From: Pseudomonadota bacterium
GTDB lineage: Bacteria > Pseudomonadota > Gammaproteobacteria > Burkholderiales > Rhodocyclaceae
DNA: 64,000 nucleotides
Reading direction: 5' to 3'
NCBI GenBank assembly: GCA_018262095.1
Contig: JAGTRW010000012.1
Span: 82,436-146,435, forward strand
Shown here: one piece after another, positions 5,893 through 61,444 of the stretch
Layout of the letters: every line of letters starts with the position of its first letter
Position numbering within the stretch: the stretch's first letter is position 1
Translations under genes and position numbers: made by a program
Notes under the pieces: model-generated
What the model was told of the DNA's origin: nothing
The model's input: only the letters and a program-made list of their open reading frames with translations
Databases searched by the model: none

Positions 5893-7446
5893 TCAGGCCG
5901 GGTGCCTTTCGTTGATGGCGACAAACTCGTCAAAATGCTCAAGGAAGATGTCGACCAAGTGCGGGTCGAAATGCTTTCCTCTTTCCTTTTTGATGTGATC
6001 GTAGACGTCTGAGGTTTTCCAGGGTTGTTTATAGACCCGGCTGTGGCACAAGGCGTCAAACACATCGGCCAATCCGGTGATGCGCGCGTAGATGTGAATC
6101 TCCTCGCCGGCCATGCCGTCCGGATAGCCCGTGCCATCCCAGCGCTCGTGGTGGCGATGGGCGATGACTGCGGCAGCTTCCATGATTTCCCGACGTGACT
6201 TGCGCAGGATGCCATAACCGATGGCGGCATGCGGCTTGATCTGTTCGAACTCCTCGGCGGTCGGCTTGCCGGGCATGGTCAGGATGGCTTCCGGTATGCC
6301 GACCTTGCCGATGTCATGCATCGGCGACGCCATGCGCAGAATGTCGGCCTGCTCTTCATCGAAGCCGGCTTTCATCGCCAATAGCCAGGAAACCTCGGCA
6401 ACCCGCTTGACGTGATTGGCCGTTTCGTTCGAATGGGTTTCGACGACCTCGCCCAGCGTGTAAATGACCTCTTTCTGGGTCTCGATGATCTCGTAGTTGA
6501 GGTCCAGATTCTTGAAGGCAATCGATACGTTGGTCGAAAACAGGCGGATCAGATCGCGATCCATTTCCAGCAGGTTCTGTACGTCGCCGTTCAAATAGAG
6601 GATGCCTGTTCGTCCGCTGGGGGTCGGGAAGTAGCCGATATACGCATCCGGGAAGAACAGGCTGCTCTGCGCGGCGACCGCCTGCGCCAGGCGATCATTG
6701 ATTTCGTCCGACATCAGCGGGTCGGAATCTTTGCCGGAGAACGACTCGTACATGCCGGTGGCGGCCAGAATGACAAACCTGTTTTTTTCATCCGGCAGCG
6801 AAAATCCGGCATTGTGGAAATACAGCGAACTCTCGTCGTAGTTGAGAATCGAGAGCAGTTGGGTCAATACCCCGTTGGCGAACTGGCGAAGCGACTGGAT
6901 TTCGAAGAGCTGAGCCGAGGCGTTGATGATTTGCAGCAATCCCCTGCGGTTGCGGTCGATGATGTGCAGGTCACGATGCGAACGCAGCGCAGTGATGACG
7001 CTGGTGGTCAGCTTCTGAACGGTGAGTTCGGATTTTTCCTTGTAGTCGTTGATGTCGTAATCCATGATCACGCGCTTTTCCGGCGCCTGACCGGGGCGCC
7101 CGGTGCGCAGGATGATGCGCACCAGCGTGTTGCGCAGCGTTTCACGGATGTGGCGCGCCACATCGAGTCCGGTGTGCTCGCTCTCCATCACGACGTCGAG
7201 CAGGATGACCGCCGTATCGGGGTGCTCTTGCAGCAGGGCTTTTGCCTCTTCACCGGAGTATGCGCTGATGAAAGACAGGCCGCGATCTTCAAAGGAAAAG
7301 TCCTTTAGCGCCAGGCGCGTCACGCGATGGATTTCCTCTTCATCATCGACGATCATCAGCTTCCAGGCTTCTCGCCGGTGCTTGGGCGATGGTGCCGTTT
7401 CTTCGGCAAAAAGCAGATCGTCGTTCAAATCTTTGGCGCTGTTCAT
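5893..7446 (-). CDS. Response regulator with REC, DUF3369-like and HD-GYP domains (c-di-GMP phosphodiesterase)
   Basis: IVDDEE...LLDVVM receiver; HDIGK...HHERWDGTGYP HD-GYP motif; overlaps kinase stop. Confidence 0.9.
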   Translation of the reverse strand: MNSAKDLNDDLLFAEETAPSPKHRREAWKLMIVDDEEEIHRVTRLALKDFSFEDRGLSFISAYSGEEAKALLQEHPDTAVILLDVVMESEHTGLDVARHIRETLRNTLVRIILRTGRPGQAPEKRVIMDYDINDYKEKSELTVQKLTTSVITALRSHRDLHIIDRNRRGLLQIINASAQLFEIQSLRQFANGVLTQLLSILNYDESSLYFHNAGFSLPDEKNRFVILAATGMYESFSGKDSDPLMSDEINDRLAQAVAAQSSLFFPDAYIGYFPTPSGRTGILYLNGDVQNLLEMDRDLIRLFSTNVSIAFKNLDLNYEIIETQKEVIYTLGEVVETHSNETANHVKRVAEVSWLLAMKAGFDEEQADILRMASPMHDIGKVGIPEAILTMPGKPTAEEFEQIKPHAAIGYGILRKSRREIMEAAAVIAHRHHERWDGTGYPDGMAGEEIHIYARITGLADVFDALCHSRVYKQPWKTSDVYDHIKKERGKHFDPHLVDIFLEHFDEFVAINERHPA

Positions 7447-12090: not shown

Positions 12091-12104
12091 GGGAGAATTC
12101 ATCC

Positions 12105-12292
12105 GAACGCAATTCAAACCAAACGACATGCCCCGCAGGAAATACCCTTGGGGTACAACGGGCACAACGAAGAGCGTCTGTTTGGGAGAGGTTATGCCTC
12201 GCCCGCTGGGTGACTCAGATAAACGATTTAGCTTATTGTTTTTTCGCCGTGTTCGTTGTGTTCGTCGTGGTTAACTGCTTTTTCCAGGTTCA
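12105..12292. repeat. Palindromic MITE/REP-like element, copy 1 (carries a 27-nt nested insert at 12129-12155)
   Basis: Left arm aacc-aaacgaca-[insert]-caacgggcacaacga; right arm tcgccgtgttcgttgtgttcgtcgtggtt; loop and outer flanks homologous to 28714-28880. Confidence 0.85.
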
Positions 12293-15200
12293 TTCACCCG
12301 ACGGGCGGCGCGCGTCGCGCAAGATTTGCCGGGCGCTCGCGAATTCAAACTGCTCGATCTGCCGCGCGAAATGATCGCCGCGCGCGCCCAGAGCGTTGCG
12401 CAGCGTTGCGGCGTGCTGCGTGAACAGCGCGGTGGCGTCGGCGTCATGGTGCGCCAGCTTATCGTCGAGTTCGTCGAACAGCGCGTCGAGCAGCGCCGGG
12501 CGGGGGGCCGTAGTCGTCACCGCCGACGGGGCCGCGAGCGCCGGCAGCGCGGCGGCGAGCGACGCGAGCTCGTCATCGACGGCGGCGACCGCCGCGTCAA
12601 GATCGCGGCTGTCGGGACTGCCGACTTGCTGCGCGCGCAGTGCGTTCTCCAGGCACTGCGCCGCCGCCGCCAACTGGTCGGCGCCGAGCGTCGCACCGGT
12701 GCCGCGCAGCGTATGCGCCAGGCGCTGTGCGGCGGCCTGCTCACCCTGCGCCAGACTGGCGCGCAGCCGCGTCATGTCGTCGGCGTGGGCGTCGACGAAA
12801 CGGCCGAGCAGCTCGCGATACTTGCCAAAATTTCCGCGCAAGCTGGCCAGTCCGCGCTCGAGGTTGAGTCCCGGGATATCGGCGAGTTGCGCTCGTGCCG
12901 CGCCGTCGATCGTCGCTGGCTTTGGCGTCGCCACCACCAGCGTGCTTGGTGCGGGTCTCGCGGCACCGGGCGCACCGGGCGCAGGCGCCAGCGACAGCCA
13001 GAGCAGCAGGCTCTGGTAGAGCGTCGCGGGTTCGACCGGCTTGGAAATGAAGTCGTTCATTCCGGCCTCTTCGCACGCCAGGCGGTCCTCGTCGAAGGCG
13101 TTGGCGGTCATCGCGACGATCGGCCTTGTCTGCCAGCCGGGCAGCGCGCGAATCGCGCGCGTCGCCTGCAGTCCGTCCATTTCGGGCATCTGCATGTCCA
13201 TCAGGATCAGATCGAAGTCGTGCGCGCGCGCCTTGGCCACCGCCTCGCGGCCGTCGCTCGCGGTATCGACGGTGAGCCCGACGCCGTGCAGCAATTCGAG
13301 CGCCACTTCACGGTTGATCGGATGGTCCTCGACGAGCAGGATGCGCGCGCCGCTGTGATTTTTGCGCAACTGGCTCTCGGCATTGGCGGTTTCGGGCGCC
13401 GCGGTGCCGGGCAGGATGCCGTGGCCGCGTTGCAGTCGCGCGGTAAACCAGAAGGTGCTGCCGACGCCCGGCGTGCTGGTCACGCCGACTTCGCCGCCCA
13501 TCAGCTGCGCCAGGCGCCGGGTGATCGCCAGTCCCAGGCCGGTACCGCCGTACTTGCGCGTGGTCGACGCGTCGGCCTGCTCGAACGACTGGAACAGTCG
13601 GCCGATCTTGTCTTGATCGATGCCGATGCCGCTGTCGGCGACCTCGAAACGCACCAGCAGTTCGCCGTCGCGGTCTTCGAGCAGCCTGGCCGAAATCGCG
13701 ATGACGCCGCGCTCGGTAAACTTGACGGCGTTGCCGGCGTAGTTGAGCAAGGCCTGGCGCAGTCGCGTCGGGTCGCCGCGCAGCCAGAGCGGAACGGCGT
13801 CGCCGTCGAGGGTCACGGTGAGCCCCTGATGGCGCGCCGACTCGCCGATGATCGAGCCGACGTTGTCGAGGATCGCCGAGAGGTGAAAATCGGTACTCTC
13901 CAATTGCAGCAGGTCGGCCTCGATCTTCGACAGGTCGAGGATGTCGTCGATGATGGTCAGCAGATGCTGGCCGGCGTTGTCGATCTTGTCGAGCCGTTCG
14001 GCCTGTTGCGGCGTTACCGCGCTGCGCCGCAACAGGTGGGTCAGGCCGATGATCGCATTCATCGGCGTGCGGATCTCGTGGCTCATATTGGCCAGGAAGG
14101 TGCTCTTGGCGCGGTTGGCGGCGTCGGCTTGCTGGCGCGCGCGCGAAAGCTCGGCGGTGCGGCTGTCGACCAGTTCTTCGAGGTGATGGCGATGGCGGTC
14201 GAGTTCTTCGCCGATCAGCTTCTTCTCGGTGATGTCTTCCTTGACCGCGACGTAGTGGCTGATCGAACCGTCGCTCTGGCGTAGCGGCGTGACGATGGCG
14301 AACTCGATATAGTCGCTGCCGTCCTTCTTGCGGTTATGGAACTCGCCTTTCCACGGGATCCCCTGGGTCATCGCCTGCCACAGGCTGTGGTAGGTTTCGG
14401 GCGGCGTTTGCCCCGATTTGAGGATTTTCGGATTTTGGCCGATCACTTCGTCGCGGCCATAGCCGGTGGTTCGCACAAAGGCTTCGTTGACGTATTCGAT
14501 GTTGGCATCGACGTTGGTGATGACGATGCTCTCCGGACTTTGCTCGAGTGCCAGTGAGAGCTTGCGCAATTCCTTTTCGCTCGCCTGACGCTCAGCTTCG
14601 CGCGAGAAATTGTCGAGGGCAAAGCTGACGTCGGTCGCCATCTGCATCAGCAGTTCGCGGATTTCCGCATCAAACGCGTAAAGCTGGCTCGAATAGAGCA
14701 CCAGCGTGCCGATCGCGACGCCATTGCGGGTCAGCGGCAGCGCCGCCGACGAGCGCCATCCGGCGCGCGCGCACTGCTCATGCCAGGGCGCGGTGATCGG
14801 GTCGTTGAGGAAGTCCTGGACCCACACTGGACGAAGTTCGCGCATTGCCGTTCCGGTGGCGCCGCGGCCCAGGGCGCTCTCGGCATCGCAGGAGACCTGC
14901 ACGGCCTTCAGGAAATCGGTCGCGTCGCCAAAGCTGGCGACCGGCCGAACGTTGAGCGAAACGGGATCGGCGAGCCCGATCCAGGCCATCTTGAGGCCGC
15001 CGAACTCGACCGCGCAGCGGCAGATTTCGGGGAACAATTCCGCTTCGCTGGGGCTCCGAACGATGGCCTGACTGCATCCGCTCAAGGCCGCGTAGAACTG
15101 GCCCAGACGCTGGATTTTGAGTTCGGCGTTCTTGCGCTCGGTGATGTCGCGCGAAATGCCGAAAATTCCGATGACCTCACCGCTCTCGTCGCGCAGCGGC

Positions 15201-15772: not shown

Positions 15773-16713
15773 GACGGAACAAGCGGCGCCGTGGTGGACG
15801 GTGCCGGCAACGCGCCACTGTCGAGGTAGCGCATGGCGATCGCGACAAAATCGTCGAAGCCGGCCAGGAAGGCGTCGGTGACGTCGGGGTCGAAATGCGT
15901 GCCGCGGCCGGCGGCGATGATTTCGCGCGCCTGATCGTAGGACATCGCGGTCTTGTACGGGCGCACCGAGATCAGCGCGTCGAAGACGTCGGCGATCGCC
16001 ATCAGCCGCGCTGAAACGGGGATCGCTTCACCGGCGAGGCGGTCGGGGTAACCGCTGCCGTCCCATTTTTCGTGGTGCCAGTGGGCGATTTCCTTGGCCG
16101 TCGCGAGAAAAGCCAGCGGCATTTCGATGTCCACTTCGGCCTGCTCGATGGCGTCGCTGCCGAGCGCGGCATGCGTCTGCATGATCGCCCATTCGTCGGC
16201 GTTGAGCTTGCCCGGCTTGAGCAGGATGTAGTCGGGAATGCCGACCTTGCCGATGTCGTGCAGCGGCGCCGAGCGGCTCAACAAATCGATATAGCGCTCG
16301 GTGAGCGTCGCGGCGAAGCGCGGATGCTGGCGCAGACCGACCGCCAGCCGCTGCACGTAGCCCTGGGTGCGCATGATGTGGTTGCCGGTTTCGGTATCGC
16401 GCGTTTCGGCCAGATGCGCCAGCGCGCGGATGTCGCCGGCATCGGCCAGCGCGGTCAGGAAGACCACCGGAATGTCGCGCGTCGCCGAAGCTTCGCGCAG
16501 CTTGGCGAGCACCGCGTAACCGTCCATTCCGGGCATCATCACGTCGAGCAGGATGAGGTCGGGCGTCGGCTCGCTGTGAGCGACACGCAGACCGACTTCG
16601 CCCGAGTTTGCCGCCAGCACGCGGTAGTGCGGCCGCAGCAGTTCGTAGAGCACGTGCAGGTTTTCGGCGGCGTCGTCGACGATCAGGATGACTGGGTTGG
16701 CGGCAGGTGACAT
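15769..16713 (-). CDS. REC-HD-GYP response regulator with an in-frame internal deletion (possibly defective)
   Basis: ILIVDD...LLDVMMP receiver stops at [10 protein letters not shown] and joins directly to [12 protein letters not shown]; HD-GYP ([16 protein letters not shown]) intact. Confidence 0.85.
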
Positions 16714-22569: not shown

Positions 22570-23352
22570 CTAGAGGCGTTGCAGCGGCCCGGCCAGATAA
22601 TCGAGCGCGGTCATTTCGCGCAGGATGGCTTCTTCCCGAACGAAAGCGTCGACCGCCTGCGGATCGAATTGGCTTCCTGCCATTCTCATAATTTCGACTT
22701 TCGCTGCGTCAAAAGAGAGCGCTTTGCGGTAGGGGCGATCGAAAGTCATGGCATCGAGCGTGTCGATTACGGCAAACAATCGTGCCGGCAAGGGGATTTC
22801 CTGACCTTTGAGCCCCGCCGGGTAACCCGAACCGTCAAATCGCTCTTCATGGCAGAGCACCACTTTTGCGGCGAAAGAAAGATAGGGCAGCTTTTCCAGC
22901 AGGTGAAAGCCGTTTTCCGGATGTTGTCTCATGATCGCCCATTCGTCGTCGGTCAGTCGCCCTGGCTTTAACAGGATGGCATCGGGAACGCCGATCTTGC
23001 CGACATCGTGCAGCAGGCTACCCCAGTAGACCTCGCGCAGCTCATGGGTCTTGCGGTAGAAGTGCTGGGCCAGGATCAGCGTATGTGAGGCCACGCGTTT
23101 CGAGTGCAGTCCGGTTTCCTGCTCGCGCAGGTCGAGTGCCAGAGCCAGCGATTCAACGAAGTCCTCGTAGGGGTGAGCCTTGGTCAAACCGGCGAGTTGC
23201 TTGCGCGAAGCGAGCAAGCAGTGTTCGCAGACGGGCAGCCCCGAGATCATGGTGTATTGCCGGTCGTGCATCTGGTGACCACAGTGCGTACATTGGTGCG
23301 CCACTGGCGCGTCGGCGCGTCGGTCATGACTTTCATCGGTTCGGATGGGCAT
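22570..23352 (-). CDS. HD-GYP domain protein with N-terminal C4 zinc ribbon
   Basis: CTHC-x17-CEHC, then LHDVGKIG...HEERFDGSGYP; start MPIRTD at 23352 preferred. Confidence 0.85.
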   Translation of the reverse strand: MPIRTDESHDRRADAPVAHQCTHCGHQMHDRQYTMISGLPVCEHCLLASRKQLAGLTKAHPYEDFVESLALALDLREQETGLHSKRVASHTLILAQHFYRKTHELREVYWGSLLHDVGKIGVPDAILLKPGRLTDDEWAIMRQHPENGFHLLEKLPYLSFAAKVVLCHEERFDGSGYPAGLKGQEIPLPARLFAVIDTLDAMTFDRPYRKALSFDAAKVEIMRMAGSQFDPQAVDAFVREEAILREMTALDYLAGPLQRL

Positions 23353-28713: not shown

Positions 28714-28880
28714 TGAACCTAGAGAACGCAATTCAAACCACAACGACACAACGGGCACAACGAGGAACGTGGGTTTTTGGAAGTTCTATGCATCACCCGT
28801 TGGGTGACCGACAAAAACGATTTTGCTTATTGTCTTTCCGCCGTGTTCGTTGTGTTCGTTGCGGTCAACTGCTTTTCCCA
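28714..28880. repeat. Palindromic MITE/REP-like element, copy 2 (no nested insert)
   Basis: Left tgaacctagagaacgcaattcaaaccacaacgacacaacgggcacaacga; right ccgccgtgttcgttgtgttcgttgcggtcaactgcttttccc. Confidence 0.85.
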
Positions 28881-30445
28881 TGCTGAATCCGATGGGCGAC
28901 GCGGTCGATGAGTTGGCAAGAATCGTCGCGCTGATGACGCGCAGCGTCGAATTTCGCCTGCAGCAAGATTGGCGCGCCGCGCTGGCCTGCCTCGACGAGG
29001 CCGTCGCGATCAATCCGCGCTTGCCGCTCGGTCACATCGATCGCGCGCGGCTGCTCGCCGAGCTCAAACGTTATGAAGAGGCGCTCGACGGCTACGATGC
29101 TTTCCTGATGCACGCCGGGAATTCGCCGGAAATATCCGACCTGCGCCAGGAACTGCTCGCTACGGTTTTCGCCGACCTGGATCAGCGCCTGATCGAGCGG
29201 CCTGGCGACCAGGCGGCGCGGCTTGCGCGCGCCAACCTGTGGCGCAGGACGCAGCATTACGCCGAGGCGCTCGCCGATTATTCGGCGATCGTCGAGCGCG
29301 ATGCGCAGCATGCCGATGCGCTCAATCATCAGGGCAGCGTGCTGCTTGCGCTCGGTCGCCACGATCAGGCAATCGACGCCTATACGCGCGCGGTCGCGGC
29401 GGCGCCGCAGCGCGCCGAACTTCACTACAACCTGGGCAATGTGCTGCAGCAGCTGGGCCGCTTCGGCGAGGCGCGCGCTGCCTACCGCCAGGCGCTCGCG
29501 CGATCGCCTGAGTTTGCCGAAGCGCAGCTCGAGCTCGCTCACTGCGACCTTGCCGAAGGCCATTATGCGGCCGGCTGGGCGGCCTACGAATGGCGCTGGC
29601 GCACCGCCCAGATGCAGGGCGACCGTTTGCCGAGCGCGCAGCCGCCGTGGCTCGGCACTCCCGCGCTGAGCGCAAAGACGATCCTGGTGTGGGCCGAGCA
29701 GGGCGCCGGCGACACGCTGCAGTTCGTCCGCCTGGTGCCGCAACTGCTCGCCGACGCGGCGCACGTGATCCTGCGCGTGCAGGCGCCGCTGCGCCGGCTG
29801 GTCGAATCGCTCGACCCGCGCATCGAGGTGATCGGCGACGATCAGCCGCTGCCGGCGCACGATGTCCAGGTTCCCTTGCTGAGCCTGCCGCTGGCGCTCA
29901 GGCTCGATGGCGTGCCGCCGTGCCCGGCGCCGTATCTGCGTGCCGACCCGCGCGACGTCGCGCGCTGGCGCGAGCGGCTGGGTGCCGCCCAGCGGCTGCG
30001 CGTCGGCATCGCCTGGGCCGGGCGGCAGCAGGGATTGCCCAACCCGACGCGCGACATCGCGCCGGCGCAGCTCGCGCCGCTCGCCGCGCTGCCGGTCGAT
30101 TTCATCAGCCTGCAATTGCCGGTCGCCGAGGCGCTGCCGCAGCTGCGCATCTTTACCGACGAGCTCGCTGACTTTGGCGAGACGGCGGCGCTGATCGAGA
30201 CGCTCGATCTGGTGCTCAGCGTCGATACTGCGGTCGCGCATCTCGCCGGTGCGCTCGGCAAGCCGTGCTGGCTGCTGCTGCGCGCCTCGGGCGAATGGCG
30301 CTGGCAGCGCGAGCGCAGCGATTGCCCGTGGTATCCGTCGCTGACGATCTTTCGTCAGCCGGAGGCGGGCGATTGGGCTGGCGTGATCTCGCGCGTCGCT
30401 GCGGCGCTGCTCGTCGGTGCCGGCACCGGTCTGAACGGCCGCTAA
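28880..30445 (+). CDS. TPR-repeat protein with C-terminal glycosyltransferase family 9-like domain
   Basis: TPR repeats (AELHYNLGNVL); EQGAGDTLQFVR; DLVLSVDTAVAHLAGALGKP; WYPS. Confidence 0.85.
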   Translation: MLNPMGDAVDELARIVALMTRSVEFRLQQDWRAALACLDEAVAINPRLPLGHIDRARLLAELKRYEEALDGYDAFLMHAGNSPEISDLRQELLATVFADLDQRLIERPGDQAARLARANLWRRTQHYAEALADYSAIVERDAQHADALNHQGSVLLALGRHDQAIDAYTRAVAAAPQRAELHYNLGNVLQQLGRFGEARAAYRQALARSPEFAEAQLELAHCDLAEGHYAAGWAAYEWRWRTAQMQGDRLPSAQPPWLGTPALSAKTILVWAEQGAGDTLQFVRLVPQLLADAAHVILRVQAPLRRLVESLDPRIEVIGDDQPLPAHDVQVPLLSLPLALRLDGVPPCPAPYLRADPRDVARWRERLGAAQRLRVGIAWAGRQQGLPNPTRDIAPAQLAPLAALPVDFISLQLPVAEALPQLRIFTDELADFGETAALIETLDLVLSVDTAVAHLAGALGKPCWLLLRASGEWRWQRERSDCPWYPSLTIFRQPEAGDWAGVISRVAAALLVGAGTGLNGR

Positions 30446-30493: not shown

Positions 30494-33400
30494 TCACGAC
30501 GCCGTGGCGTTACGAATTCGCTGCGTCAGCAAGTCAAGTTCGGCGATCACTGCATTGGCGCATTCGCCGATCGTCGCCTGGTCGGCTGCGCCGTGAAGCG
30601 CCGACTGCAAGCGCTGCGCCGCCTCGCTCAGGGCGCTGGCGCCGACGTTGCCGGCGGCGCCGACCAAGGCGTGCGTCAGTTGCCCGACGCGCTCGATGTC
30701 GTTGGCCGCCAGCGCCGCGGCCAGCGCTTGGCCGTTGTCGCCGTGGCCGTCGGCGAAAAGCGTCAGCAGGCGCAGGTATTTTTCGTGATTGCCGCGCACC
30801 AGCGTCAGGCCGCGCTTGACGTCGAGTCCGGGAATCGCCGCCAGCGCGGCTCGCCAGTCTGCCGGTTGGCCGGCTTGAGCGGCGGCGCTGGGCGTTGCGT
30901 CGGGGCAGTCCACCAGCGACGAGCGCTCGCTCGGCAGCCACTTGAGCAGTGTCGCGTAGAGCACGCCGGGATCGACCGGTTTGGCGACAAAATCGTTCAT
31001 TCCCGCGGCGCGGCAGGCGCGCTGATCCTCTTCGAAGGCGTTGGCGGTCATCGCCAGGATCGGCGTTTGCGCGCGGCCGGGCAGCGCGCGGATCGCGCGC
31101 GCGGCCTCGAGTCCGTTCATCAGCGGCATCTGGATGTCCATCAGGATCAGCTGGTAGTCGCGGGCCCGCGCCTGGTCGACGGCCTCGATACCGTCGCTGG
31201 CGACGTCGACCGCGAGGCCTGCGCCGTGCAGCAGTTCGAGCGCGACTTCGCGGTTGATCGCGTTGTCTTCGGCGAGCAGCACCAACGCGCCGCCATGCTG
31301 GCGCCGCAGCTCGGCCTCGGCGTCGGGCGTGCCGTCGGGCGTCGCCTGCGGCATGATGCCGCGGCCGCGCCCCAGGCGCGCGGTGAACCAGAAGGTGCTG
31401 CCTTTCCCCGGTTCGCTGTCGACGCCGGCCTCGCCACCCATCAGTTGGGCGAGGTGGCGGGTAATTGCCAGTCCCAGACCGGTACCGCCGAACTTGCGGG
31501 TGGTCGATGCGTCGGCTTGCTCGAAGACCTTGAACAGGCCGGCGGCCTGCTCGGCGCTGATGCCGATGCCGGTGTCGGCGACCTCGAAACGAACGACGAT
31601 CTCGTCGCCGTTCTCGGCAAGCAGCAGCGCGCGCAGCGCGATCGACCCGTGCTCGGTGAATTTGATCGCGTTGCTGGTGTAGTTGAAGAGCGCCTGGCGC
31701 AGCCGCGTCGGGTCGCCGCGCAGCCAAATCGGCACGCCGTCGGGATCAATCTCGATCGCCAGTCCCTTGGCCTGCGCCTGGTCGGAAATCAGCGAACGCA
31801 CATGGTCGAGAACGGCGTTGAGCGAAAAATTGGTGTGCTCGAGTTGCAGCTTGCCGGCCTCGATCTTGGAAATGTCGAGGATGTCGTTGATGATCGACAG
31901 CAGGTGGTTGCCGGCGGTTTCGATCTTGGCCAGCCGCTCGGCCTGCTGCGGCATCGGCTGACTGCGGCGCAGCAGATGGGTCAGGCCGATGATGGCGTTC
32001 ATCGGCGTGCGGATCTCGTGGCTCATATTGGCCAGAAAGCTGCTCTTGGCGAGGCTCGCGGTCTCGGCCGCGTCCTTGGCCTGGCGCAGCATCTGTTCGG
32101 TCTGTTGGCGCGCTCTGATGTCGGTGACGAAGCTGATGAAGCGGTTGGGCAGCTCGCCGCTCGCCGGTTGGTAATAGAAAGTCACCTCGATCGGAATCAG
32201 GCGGCCGTCGCGATGACGCTCGGCCGTCGTGATCGTCGCCGAACCTTGTTCGCGCAGCGCCTGCGTGCGCTGCCGGAAATCGGCCGCGGCAAAACTCGGG
32301 TCGATGTCGGCGACGCAAAGCGCGGTCAGTTCGTCGGGGTGGTAGCCGATCAGCCGCGCGGCGTACTCGTTGACGTAGAGGATGCGTCCGCTGTCGGCGT
32401 CGATCCAGTGGATACCGATTCCGGCGCGATCCATGGCGAACTGCGTTTCGGCCAGATGCAGCGATTTTTGCTGCAGTTCGGCGGTGCGCGCTTCGACCAG
32501 GTGCTCGAGCTGCTGCTGCGATTTTTCAAGCTCGGTCTCGATGCGCTTGCGTTCGCTGATGTCGCGCGATACGCCGAGCACCCCGATGATCGTCCCGTCA
32601 CCGTCGTACATCGGCGACTTGCTGGTTTCGAACAGGCCGCGGTAGCCGCCGACCGCGAAGTTGAGCCATTCCTCGTTGCGCAGCGGCCGGCCCGCGGCCA
32701 TCGCCGCACGATCGTGGTCGCGGAAGAAATCGGCGAGCGTTTCGTCGACGAAGTCGTAATCGGTACGGCCGACGATTTCGTCCTCCTTGGCGCCGAACAA
32801 ACGCTCGAATTCGGGGTTGCACGACAGATAGACGCCATCGACGTCCTTGAGCCAGACCAGGTCGGGAATGGTCGTGACCAGCGCTTTGAGCCGCGCGCGC
32901 TCGAGTTCGAGCTGACGGAACGGCGCCTGAACGCCGGCGACGAACAGCGCGCGATAGATCATCAGGTAGGCGATCGCCTTATAGACGTGACCGAGCAGAT
33001 TGAAGACGTCGGTGGGCTCGGCGTAGAGCGTCAGGAACAGCTCGGCGAGCGCCTGAACCCACGCCGCCGTGGCGAGCCAGAGCAGATCGCCGTTGTCCGT
33101 GCGGCGCGCCTGACGATAGAGCAGCAACGCGGCGATCGCGTAAAGTCCGGCGAGCAGGTACTCGCTGCCGATCTTGAACGAGGTCAGTCCTTCGCCGGCG
33201 ACGAAGGTGCGCGGCAGCCAGTCGACATGGACGAGCCCCAGCCAGTAAACGCTGGCGGAAAGCGCCAGCGCGGCGGCCAGGCTGGCGTAGCACGACGCTG
33301 CCGACCAGCGTCGCGCCGGCAGCAGCGCGACCGCGAGCAGCGCAACAGCGACGACCAGCCGTCCGGCGAGCCAGAAATTGATCGCTTTTTCCGTCCCGCT

Positions 33401-60163: not shown

Positions 60164-60694
60164 TCAGGCGGCGGCTGGCGGCTTGGGCCAGACCCAGTGT
60201 TGCAAGGTGACCGCCACCGGCCGCATGACGACCGCCTCGGTCGGGCAGCGTTCGACGCAGTTGCCGCAACCGGTGCAGGCTTCGCGGATGACGCTGTGGA
60301 TCTGTTTGGCGGCGCCGACCATGGCGTCGGTCGGGCAGACCTTGAGGCAACGGCAGCAGCCGATACAGAGGTCTTCGGAGATGGTCGCCAGTTGCGGTCC
60401 CGCGTCGACCAGCGCAGCGAGATCGAGTTCAACGCCGAGCCGGGCGGCCAGCGCCGACGCCAGCGCCTTGCCGCCGGGCGGACAAGCGGCGACGCTCGCC
60501 GTTCCTTCGGCGATGGCGCGGGCAGCGGCCGGGCAACCGGCCATTCCGCACTGGCCGCAATTGGATCCGGGCATCATCGCTTCGATCTCGTCGATCAGCG
60601 GGTCGCCTTCGACGGCGAACTTGCGTGCGGCGACACCGAGGCCCAGACCGAGTGCGGCACCGAGCAGGGTCAGGCTGAAGATGGCGGCGATCAT
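60164..60694 (-). CDS. rnfB: Rnf complex subunit B (short, nif-associated type)
   Basis: PGSNCGQCG..GC; CIGCCRC...CPTDA; CTGCGNC. Confidence 0.93.
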   Translation of the reverse strand: MIAAIFSLTLLGAALGLGLGVAARKFAVEGDPLIDEIEAMMPGSNCGQCGMAGCPAAARAIAEGTASVAACPPGGKALASALAARLGVELDLAALVDAGPQLATISEDLCIGCCRCLKVCPTDAMVGAAKQIHSVIREACTGCGNCVERCPTEAVVMRPVAVTLQHWVWPKPPAAA

Positions 60695-60711
60695 GTCAAT
60701 ACCTCCTTTTT

Positions 60712-60853
60712 AACCACGGCGGCATGCACCGCAGGAAATACCCCTGGGGTACGGCGGGCACGGCGAAAAACTCAAGCAGTGCAGTTCCTTGCTCGTTCTC
60801 TTTTATCGGAACGATATAGGCCGTTGTCTTTTCGCCGTGTTCGCTGTGGTCAA
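60712..60853. repeat. Palindromic MITE/REP-like element, copy 3 (27-nt nested insert at 60725-60751) between rnfA and rnfB
   Basis: Left aaccacggcggca-[insert]-cggcgggcacggcga; right tcgccgtgttcgctgtggtcaa. Confidence 0.8.
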
Positions 60854-60862
60854 TCATGTTTT

Positions 60863-61444
60863 TCATTTGAAGTTGAGCCCCGAAAACCCCATGAACGCCA
60901 GCGACATCAGGCTGGCCAGGACGAAAGCGATCGGCGGGCCCGAGAAGGCTGCGGGGACGCGCGCCAGCGCCAGGCGTTCGCGCATTCCGGCGAAAATCAC
61001 CATGGCCAGCGTAAAGCCGAGCGCCGAGCCGAAGTCATAGACCAGCGTGGTGACAAAGCCGTGGTCCTGCTGGACGTTGATCAGCGGCAGGCCCAGCACC
61101 GAGCAGTTGGTGGCGATCAGCGGCAGGTAGATGCCGAGCATCTGGTAGAGCTTGGGCGCCATCTTGTGGATCACCGCCTCGGTGAATTGGACGACTGCGG
61201 CGATCACCAGGATGAAGGTCATGATGCGCAGGTAACCGAGGCCCAGCGGAACGAGCAGCCAGTGTCCGAGGATCCAGCTCAGCGCCGCCGCGAGGACGAT
61301 CACGAAGCTGGTGGCCAGCCCCATGCCGAGCGCGCTGTCGATGCGCTTGGAAACGCCCATGAAAGGGCACAGGCCGAGGAAGCGCACCAGCACCACGTTG
61401 TTGACCAGCGCGGTCGAAATCAGCAGGACGAAGTATTCATTCAT
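60863..61444 (-). CDS. rnfA: Rnf complex subunit A
   Basis: [32 protein letters not shown]. Confidence 0.94.

Follow-up and report, generated by a model that had tools for sequence, protein, structure and literature searches.

The window analysed here is a stretch of 64,000 nt from a Rhodocyclaceae genome (GenBank assembly GCA_018262095.1, contig JAGTRW010000012.1, positions 82,436 to 146,435 of the forward strand), and it contains three intergenic copies of a palindromic repeat of ~165–190 bp, all in the + orientation. Two of these copies are interrupted by a near-identical 27-nt sequence that we refer to as the type A mini-hairpin element (Table 1). Copy 1 of the host repeat lies between convergent genes for a lolD-like ABC ATPase and a hybrid histidine kinase, copy 2 lies between an sdaA-like gene and a TPR gene, and copy 3 fills the spacer between rnfA and rnfB. 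The arms of the host repeat are built from three tandem 9-nt units, CACGGCGRR, which have decayed to CACAACGRR (GG>AA) in the lineage of the window, and they are bracketed by GCAGTT(C)AACC and by GGTTAACTGC with a run of T residues; the loop contains a small conserved hairpin, tCACCnnnnGGGTGa.

The two 27-mers are identical at 25 of their 27 positions. The insert in copy 1, located 39 nt past the stop codon of the lolD-like gene, is also identical to the commonest 27-nt form in metagenomes. The 12-mer GCAGGAAATACC, when permitting one mismatch, is found at only these two sites in the window (shuffled sequences predict 0.14), and a covariance model of the element gives E values of ~6e-12 and ~5e-10 for the copy 1 and copy 3 inserts, respectively, with no more than 12.9 bits (E 1.8) anywhere else in the window. 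A chance origin of the shared 27-mer is excluded. Both inserts are in the same arm and the same orientation, between '..CA' and 'C(A/G)(A/G)CGGG', and both follow the CA of the second of the three 9-nt units in the left arm; this alignment of the host copies was made by hand at the insert site because MAFFT misplaced copy 2. Copy 2 reads straight through the corresponding junction, acgaca^caacggg, and is nonetheless the closest relative of copy 1 (83% identity over 103 nt and 93% over 42 nt, with both in the same clade of the host tree). All of these features, namely two near-identical 27-mers at one insertion point, a copy without the insert, and the close relationship of copies 1 and 2, had been described in the initial annotation and are as reported there. 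Because the insert of copy 1 is of the CCCTT subtype and that of copy 3 of the CCCCT subtype, both of which are present in several unrelated hosts, neither window insert was copied from the other.

Table 1. Mini-hairpin elements, host palindromic repeats, sister-element loci, and junctions of filled/empty pairs.
Feature	Position or locus	Strand	Score	Remarks
Mini-hairpin element type A, CCCTT subtype, 27 nt	12129..12155	+	covariance model 49.0 bits	reads tgccccgcaggaaatacccttggggta
Mini-hairpin element type A, CCCCT subtype, private C4>A change, 27 nt	60725..60751	+	covariance model 42.8 bits	reads tgcaccgcaggaaatacccctggggta
Host palindromic repeat copy 1	12101..12292	+	nhmmer 107 bits, alignment	carries 27-mer
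Host palindromic repeat copy 2	28720..28882	+	126 bits	no mini-hairpin; empty junction 28748/28749
Host palindromic repeat copy 3	60696..60867	+	75 bits	right arm shorter (two units); carries 27-mer
Type B/C mini-hairpins	L041 870-1060	-		
Type B/C mini-hairpins	L162 ~690; L188; L155 1612-1826; L130/L150/L151/L160/L183			
Filled/empty pair, Rhodocyclaceae repeat				junctions acgaca^caacgg, gcgaaca^cggcgg
Filled/empty pair, CGTC-type repeat, 37% GC contig				junction tcgtcacc^ctgaac; empty and filled copies 60 nt apart
Filled/empty pair, CGTC REP loop				junction ccccgggt^caagcccgagg
Filled/empty pair, REP tail				junction ggaatg^cagagc
Filled/empty pair, GTAG REP loop				GTAGGGTGCGT...ACGCACC

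Distribution of the element

One scan of JGI metagenome contigs with the exact 19-base core CGCAGGAAATACCCNTGGGG identified 98 loci, and the full 26–27-mer TGCC(C)CGCAGGAAATACCCYTGGGGTR is present at ~95 of them. The loci sort into ~45 groups by their flanking sequences, on contigs with GC contents between 0.30 and 0.70, and similarity among the copies stops at the same ends throughout. The commonest forms are TGCCCGCAGGAAATACCCTTGGGGTG (26 nt, 27 loci), TGCCCCGCAGGAAATACCCTTGGGGTA (22 loci), and the same 27-mer ending in GTG (17 loci). About a quarter of the loci are copies of the Rhodocyclaceae host repeat whose arm is interrupted at the corresponding position, and the rest are unrelated backgrounds; confinement of the 27-mer to this one position in the arm, a possibility raised in the initial annotation, is therefore not observed. 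The other contexts include the apex of REPIN-like pairs of GTAG-type repetitive extragenic palindromes (REPs), the loops of single GTAG REPs (GTAGGGTGCGT...ACGCACC), the loops and tails of CGTC/dRS3-type REPs, several AT-rich composite repeats, junctions between repeat modules, and direct tandem arrays without spacers (locus L206). Most copies are intergenic.

Two copies are on plasmids of isolates. In Sulfurovum mangrovi plasmid NZ_CP087125.1 the element lies inside a CGTC-type hairpin, and in Paraburkholderia aromaticivorans plasmid pBN4 a diverged copy lies inside the rve gene of an IS3 element. A near-identical sequence is common to Campylobacterota and Betaproteobacteria. The ~45 unrelated flank contexts, the two isolate plasmids, and the filled and empty copies of five host repeats (see below) support the proposal in the initial annotation of a tiny element nested in another, which applies more broadly than could be seen from the window.

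Searches elsewhere yielded little that resembles the element. The covariance model, run over 640 kb, returned either near-consensus copies or nothing, with no decayed copies between 29 and 21 bits. There is no 27-mer match in 5,426 E. coli genomes, and the sequence is thus not a fragment of a universal RNA. A scan of IMG/VR for the core gave 0 matches, and a phage collection contained only 20/21-nt matches at E ~0.9, which we treat as chance. Rfam 15 has no match to the window at the gathering score, and seven carrier loci searched at E<=1 gave two matches to plant microRNA precursors at 37 and 33 bits, relative to gathering scores of 268 and 90. String and keyword searches of the published literature found no description of the sequence. 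The copies are either solitary or directly abutting, rather than spaced with unique spacers as CRISPR repeats are. Resemblances to CsrA sites, MS2/PP7 operators, RAT, boxB, dif/Xer, CIRCE, and Tn3 inverted repeats were rejected on sequence.

We leave three loci out of the count. L123 matches by chance within coding sequence, at the RRKYPWG of an FGE-sulfatase-like open reading frame (ORF). L137 (21-45) and L193 (10496-10520) are ambiguous, with a motif-like sequence (28.8 bits) that overlaps the trailer and 3′ acceptor end of a tRNA gene on the opposite strand, perhaps by chance or as a relic.

Several contexts have features of their own. On a set of AT-rich contigs (L135, L153, L156, L157, L179, L185, L195, L199, L205, and L213) the 26-mer is the core of a composite repeat of ~90 nt present at unrelated loci, in the order promoter-like TTGAAA-N17-TTCAAT, 26-mer, and CATCTCACTAAAG, the last of which resembles a T3/T7-type phage promoter core. 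The tails of CGTC-type REPs at L126, L148, L149, L168, L171, L175, L182, L183, L190, and L191 read CTGACCGAAGGAAATG before the insertion point, close to the 5′ half of the 27-mer, CCGCAGGAAATA, which may hint at the origin of the element; L175 is a mosaic of such 5′-half-like units. A 41-bp palindrome around CGTC dimers in Halothiobacillus neapolitanus (..GGTaTTTCgAAGC-gCCC; PMC3733652) shares GAAATACC / GGTATTTC with the core of the element, and we note it as a lead only.

Exact insertion and target preference

Joining the two flanks of each copy and searching for uninterrupted versions revealed filled and empty pairs in five unrelated host repeats (Table 1). There are several consistent features. 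First, the difference is always a block of 25–27 nt, and nothing is duplicated; the same absence of a target-site duplication is seen at one orthologous site, rnfA-rnfB. Second, the base following the insert is C in 57 of 69 distinct contexts, and is derived from the host in all five pairs. Third, the next base is A in 36 of the 69 contexts, and directly before the insert 38 contexts have a G and just 3 a C. The element is thus only weakly site-specific, inserting 5′ of C and often at G^CA: the site specificity proposed in the initial annotation holds as a preference, although there are many insertion sites other than the position in the host arm. The two flanks of a copy are complementary more often than in shuffled pairings, with 12 of the 69 contexts above the 5% control threshold where 3.5 are expected. 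Many of these sites are not hairpins.

Could the insert arise incidentally when fragile palindromes are repaired or replicated, with hairpin cleavage or template switching copying a short hairpin from elsewhere as filler without a dedicated enzyme? The enrichment of the element in the loops and arms of palindromic repeats is in accord with this, as are the absence of target duplications, the existence of tandem copies, and the presence of modules like the 5′ half (CCGAAGGAAATG) adjoining some insertion sites. We nonetheless regard this as decidedly unlikely. The ends are exact and identical in unrelated hosts, the length is fixed at 26–27 nt, the boundaries are uniform with no junction microhomology so far, and several copies are in coding sequence. 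Strong complementarity between the flanks is absent from most of the 69 contexts, with only 12 above the 5% control threshold, and filler would not be identical in sequence across phyla.

Local history of the insert and sister elements

Alignment of metagenome contigs from relatives to the rnfA-rnfB region shows this site in three states. In the first there is no host repeat, and rnfB and rnfA are separated by an 11-nt spacer, CACGCGCTCCT, in place of window positions 60694-60865 (runs X20 and X23). In the second, found in organism A (runs X30/X31), the host repeat is present with exactly 27 letters absent within 60722-60752; one contig contains rnfB and the left arm at ~93% identity, and another contains the loop, the right arm, and rnfA at 97%. 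In the third, that of the window and four identical strains (L217-L220), the host repeat is present with the 27-mer. Other host copies of organism A do contain the 27-mer, and the summed contig depth over the element in this organism is ~9–14 times the single-copy depth; the window has 2 copies in 64 kb. Identical-protein look-ups for strain polymorphism returned only identical strains.

The host repeat is itself an insertion, because the contig of a relative joins 28713 directly to 28884 at the copy 2 site, skipping 170 nt. The sequence TGAA fits both sides of this junction and is a possible 4-bp target duplication of the host palindrome. The downstream TPR gene apparently has its ATG supplied by the repeat.

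Some host copies have multiplied with the insert aboard, as L201 and L133 are 84–88% identical to copy 1 over the whole element yet are located at non-orthologous sites. In a neighbor-joining tree of host copies with the inserts removed, empty copies (window copy 2 and L207 7465-7627) nest among filled ones, although the tree is biased because most loci were found through the insert.

Two further mini-hairpins occupy equivalent ACA^C junctions of the host arms, sometimes beside type A (Table 1). Type B, TGCCGCGAAGC(A/C)AATCCCGCGGGACA, is 26 nt long and is found in unit 2 or unit 3 of the left arm or, reversed, in the right arm; type C, GCGCGAAGCCTCCCTGAAGAGGGACAG, is 27 nt long. All three types are laid out alike, with a 5′ tail of 10–14 nt and a 3′ hairpin that is short (TACCC..GGGTA or TCCC..GGGA), and they end in YA/CA(G). 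Searches of plasmids gave only weak partial matches to type B or type C.

These observations bear on two explanations that do not invoke repeated insertion. One is that a single subfamily of the host palindrome has the insert as an ancestral or structural trait, in effect an optional side hairpin, which copies 1 and 3 retained and the copy 2 lineage lost on one occasion, the scenario that the initial annotation set against its own proposal. Consistent with this, among ~25 loci of the host family the insert is at the unit 2 position of the same arm in every copy that could be oriented, filled copies have multiplied as a unit (L201 and L133), and the ACA...ACA flanks in the A-rich host type could favor a precise 27-nt deletion by slippage. 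It is largely refuted by the cross-host distribution, which does not match an ancestral insert with a single loss, and we consider it highly improbable. The same 26–27-mer is found in dozens of unrelated contexts and in genes, and these contexts are not fragments of the host repeat; empty copies nest among filled ones; the orthologous rnf copy in organism A is empty; and the two subtypes represented in the window are both found in other hosts. Moreover, the inserts are 93% identical, yet MAFFT gapped much of the loop and one right-arm unit between copies 1 and 3.

The second is that gene conversion between the near-identical 9-mer arms spreads the insert within the host family without new insertions, and that copy 3 of the window was filled in this way. 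Gene conversion, which the initial annotation had offered as its other option, is a possible route from one host copy to another: there are homologous host arms on both sides of the insert, the identical position needs no high target specificity, and in organism A the rnf copy is empty while another copy has a left arm with the 27-mer that matches window positions 60713-60770 with 6 differences in 58 nt. As the full explanation it seems to us somewhat unlikely, because it does not account for the first entry into unrelated host repeats or genes. The equivalent ACA^C junctions that types B and C occupy include some in other units and some in the opposite arm, which suggests that the junction is targeted and not that a tract is copied. 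The substitutions beside the insert (GCA in the window and ACG in organism A) may also speak against conversion.

Insertions in coding sequences

Copies of the element are present inside genes for CheZ, a sigma-54 activator, and transposases of the IS110, IS91, and IS3 families, and Pfam confirms each family assignment. Where the insert is 27 nt long the reading frame is kept, and long ORFs stay open in CheZ, the sigma-54 activator (in its linker), the IS110-family transposase, and the rve gene of the IS3 family on pBN4. Inserts of 26 nt shift the frame of the IS91-type transposase gene and of one other ORF; with the insert removed, the IS91-type gene reads ...FCPSCHQKR..., matching Zn_Tnp_IS91.

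Structure of the 27-mer

The type A sequence folds end to end as RNA with an energy of −13.3 kcal/mol (−11.4 for the complement). Two hairpins are possible, a 10-bp end-to-end helix and a 5-bp 3′ hairpin pairing positions 15–19 with 23–27, and both use G.T pairs that are present on the + strand only. Among 24 distinct variants the end-to-end helix is conserved, but its covariation is not above that of shuffles. In the 3′ hairpin, positions 15/27 are found as T-A, T.G, and C-G and positions 16/26 as A-T, G.T, and C-G, a score that 2 of 500 shuffles reach. The pairing of the ends noted in the initial annotation is thus possible, but the sparse variation favors the shorter 3′ hairpin.

The near-invariance of the sequence in genomes of 30–70% GC raises the question of whether it is a functional hairpin maintained by selection, either as a protein-binding site in RNA or DNA or as a small transcript or terminator module. 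The RNA fold with G.U pairs on one strand would suit such a role, as would its location after the promoter-like TTGAAA-N17-TTCAAT in one AT-rich repeat family and the T-run that follows it in another. We consider this unlikely, though less so than repair filler. No Rfam family matches in the window or the seven carrier loci, there is no preferred orientation relative to genes, genes are interrupted (including the two frameshifts), and near-identical host repeats occur both with and without the sequence, to no visible effect. Its absence from the E. coli genomes shows that any partner protein is not universal.

Interpretation and proposed mechanism

Taken together, we conclude that the 27-mer is very probably an independent insertion element. 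The joint reading that it is a discrete 26–27-nt insertion element moved in trans as a REP-like non-autonomous unit is the one we favor, albeit with more reserve. Movement in trans is inferred because the element is too small to encode anything, and its exact ends, fixed length, and near-invariant sequence in very different genomes argue for a sequence-specific trans-acting factor and for transfer between lineages.

Single-strand transposition by HUH/Y1 enzymes, as in IS200/IS605 and in REPs mobilized by REP-associated tyrosine transposases (RAYTs), proceeds without target duplication, recognizes a hairpin on one strand, has minimal target preference, and favors palindrome loops and arms, which become single-stranded upon extrusion or while DNA is replicated. 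The element has exact ends, no duplication, a one-strand G.T hairpin, a target preference of one or two bases, and an enrichment at hairpin-prone DNA, and for these reasons an HUH/Y1 enzyme is the most likely mechanism, although the assignment to this class is tentative and well short of an even prospect. By this mechanism an HUH/Y1 enzyme (a RAYT or an IS200/IS605-like protein) would mobilize the non-coding element in trans by a single-strand 'peel and paste' process with the element as a single-hairpin substrate. Whatever the enzyme, the element lands as an exact block directly 5′ of C, often at G^CA, without a target-site duplication. In the window it has entered two of three copies of a Rhodocyclaceae-specific palindrome similar to a MITE (a transposable element of the miniature inverted-repeat kind), itself an insertion, and once inside it is carried along as the host multiplies. 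On the HUH/Y1 reading, near-invariance across 30–70% GC would reflect enzyme recognition of almost every base together with horizontal spread.

Several observations weigh against this interpretation. The initial annotation had envisaged a nuclease or HUH gene beside the 27-mer, but clustering of neighboring genes at the carrier loci revealed no recurrent gene family near the element. A tblastn search of ~0.68 Mb of carrier DNA with an IS200 TnpA query gave nothing below E=1, and no transposase flanked by a pair of elements was found. The element lacks the GTAG or CGTC tag of the known REP superfamilies, and it is a single 27-nt unit where IS200/IS605 requires two different hairpin ends. Structural support is thin, as the fold energy of the 27-mer as DNA is not clearly better than that of shuffles and the variation that favors the 3′ hairpin over the end-to-end helix is too little to decide between them. 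Orientation relative to neighboring genes (36 sense, 23 antisense) has no significant bias. The occurrence at one position in ~25 host copies also fits host proliferation or gene conversion, and, with most copies having been recovered by the exact 19-base pattern, both their homogeneity and the share of filled host copies are subject to ascertainment bias.

At one locus (L154 585-1300) an ORF for an 87-aa GIY-YIG nuclease (753-1013, − strand) lies between two direct CGTC-type repeats that each contain the 27-mer, with a third, empty repeat copy just upstream. As a candidate partner enzyme it was rejected, since the pairing is not seen at other loci, but it is perhaps worth attention given that CGTC REPs have no known transposase (PMC3733652).

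Comparison with known systems

REPs are 20–40 bp in length with a GTAG or CGTC tag unpaired at one end, and they occur inside genes and other palindromes (PMC3733652), a precedent for the sites occupied by the element. They reach high copy numbers in a genome, mainly outside genes, and in REP/REPIN-RAYT systems the repeats flank a single-copy RAYT (Y1 transposase) gene. The REP/REPIN-RAYT systems (Di Nocera et al. 2013, PMC3733652; Bertels and Rainey 2011, PMC3116915) are similar to the element in that it falls within the 20–40 bp range, is a short imperfect palindrome, is probably multi-copy and mostly intergenic, and is non-coding and presumably dependent on a trans-acting factor. There are also clear differences. 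The ends of the element are TGCC... and ...GGGGTR, and the other strand with the host G gives G^YAC rather than GTAG or CGTC. REP families are largely lineage-specific and vertically inherited, whereas the element is near-identical in Campylobacterota and Betaproteobacteria and from 30 to 70% GC, and no RAYT gene flanked by the element was found in the ~0.68 Mb of carrier loci. It is a guest inside GTAG and CGTC REPs, and not itself one.

IS200/IS605 elements and the non-autonomous palindrome-associated transposable elements (PATEs) have two distinct subterminal hairpin ends, are at least ~100 nt long, and have a target motif of 4–5 nt at the left end; their transposition favors the lagging-strand template and proceeds through an excised single-strand circle. 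The element resembles them in having no target-site duplication, an apparent recognition of a hairpin on one strand, a short target preference, and a probable affinity for single-stranded DNA, but it is one 26–27-nt unit with one or two preferred bases at the right end, and no TnpA was found with it. The Rickettsia palindromic elements (RPEs) are palindromic selfish DNAs of ~100–150 bp, restricted to Rickettsia, that insert in frame into protein-coding genes. Entry in frame leaving ORFs open is common to both (CheZ, the sigma-54 activator, and the IS110 and IS3 transposases), but the element, at 27 nt (9 codons), is about five times smaller and is taxonomically broad; RPEs are cited in PMC3733652.

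The enterobacterial repetitive intergenic consensus (ERIC, or intergenic repeat unit, IRU) and other bacterial MITEs (Correia, RUP, Nezha) are, like the sequences described here, small non-autonomous palindromic repeats. The host palindrome of the window is similar to them in its length of ~170 bp, its long inverted arms, and its possible 4-bp TGAA duplication. ERIC copies with extra blocks at fixed internal positions are a precedent for a repeat within a repeat. The 27-mer differs from classical, DDE-mobilized MITEs in lacking terminal inverted repeats in the MITE sense and a target duplication, and it is several-fold smaller than any MITE that we know to have been described.

Given these differences, it is conceivable, though in our estimate somewhat short of an even prospect, that type A and its sisters B and C represent a previously undescribed class of self-contained 26–27-nt hairpin elements with exact, duplication-free insertion into single-strand-prone DNA. 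With the same reservation, near-identity across phyla would imply a widely transferred trans-acting enzyme, and these would be the smallest bacterial transposable units; perhaps no smaller unit of mobile DNA has been described from bacteria. If confirmed, a self-copying sequence of 27 nt in the repeats and genes of distant bacteria would set a new lower size limit for mobile DNA and would point to an enzyme with a compact, almost fully specified recognition site; enzymes paired with such sites, among them HUH nucleases, RAYTs, and TnpA, are useful as tools. Guests inside hosts also bear on how REP-type repeats diversify. For annotation, the consequences are that a host repeat has been taken for a 56-aa protein and that genuine proteins such as CheZ contain 9-codon inserts, and the element offers a simple marker with which horizontal exchange in sediments and wastewater could be followed between Campylobacterota and Betaproteobacteria.

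The host repeat and other features of the window

The host palindrome is apparently an undescribed Rhodocyclaceae repeat family. Copies are present in Propionivibrio and Rhodocyclaceae metagenome-assembled genomes (MAGs), with as many as two in 8 kb of one Propionivibrio MAG, and examples beyond the window include L031, L034, L041, L062, and L073. A scan of the genome collection with a loose two-part pattern for the host arms gave 117 loci, of which 110 are chance occurrences in GC-rich genomes and seven are true host copies. In public gene calls copy 3 is annotated (60696-60866, − strand) as a 56-aa ORF with stop and start codons overlapping those of its rnfA/rnfB neighbors. This is most likely a mis-annotation of the host repeat; the ORF has no family match, and the idea that the repeat encodes a small protein with His-rich arms was rejected on this ground and because the repeat is present in all orientations.

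The DNA of the window matches metagenome contigs of wastewater type, and it is unusually rich in PAS/GGDEF-type sensors. It also contains paralogous signaling genes (hybrid histidine kinase / PAS-GAF and HD-GYP-like segments) at 12992-14128 and 30932-32068 and further at 6218-6329, 16160-16271, and 22930-23014; the paralogues are 72–80% identical at the DNA level.

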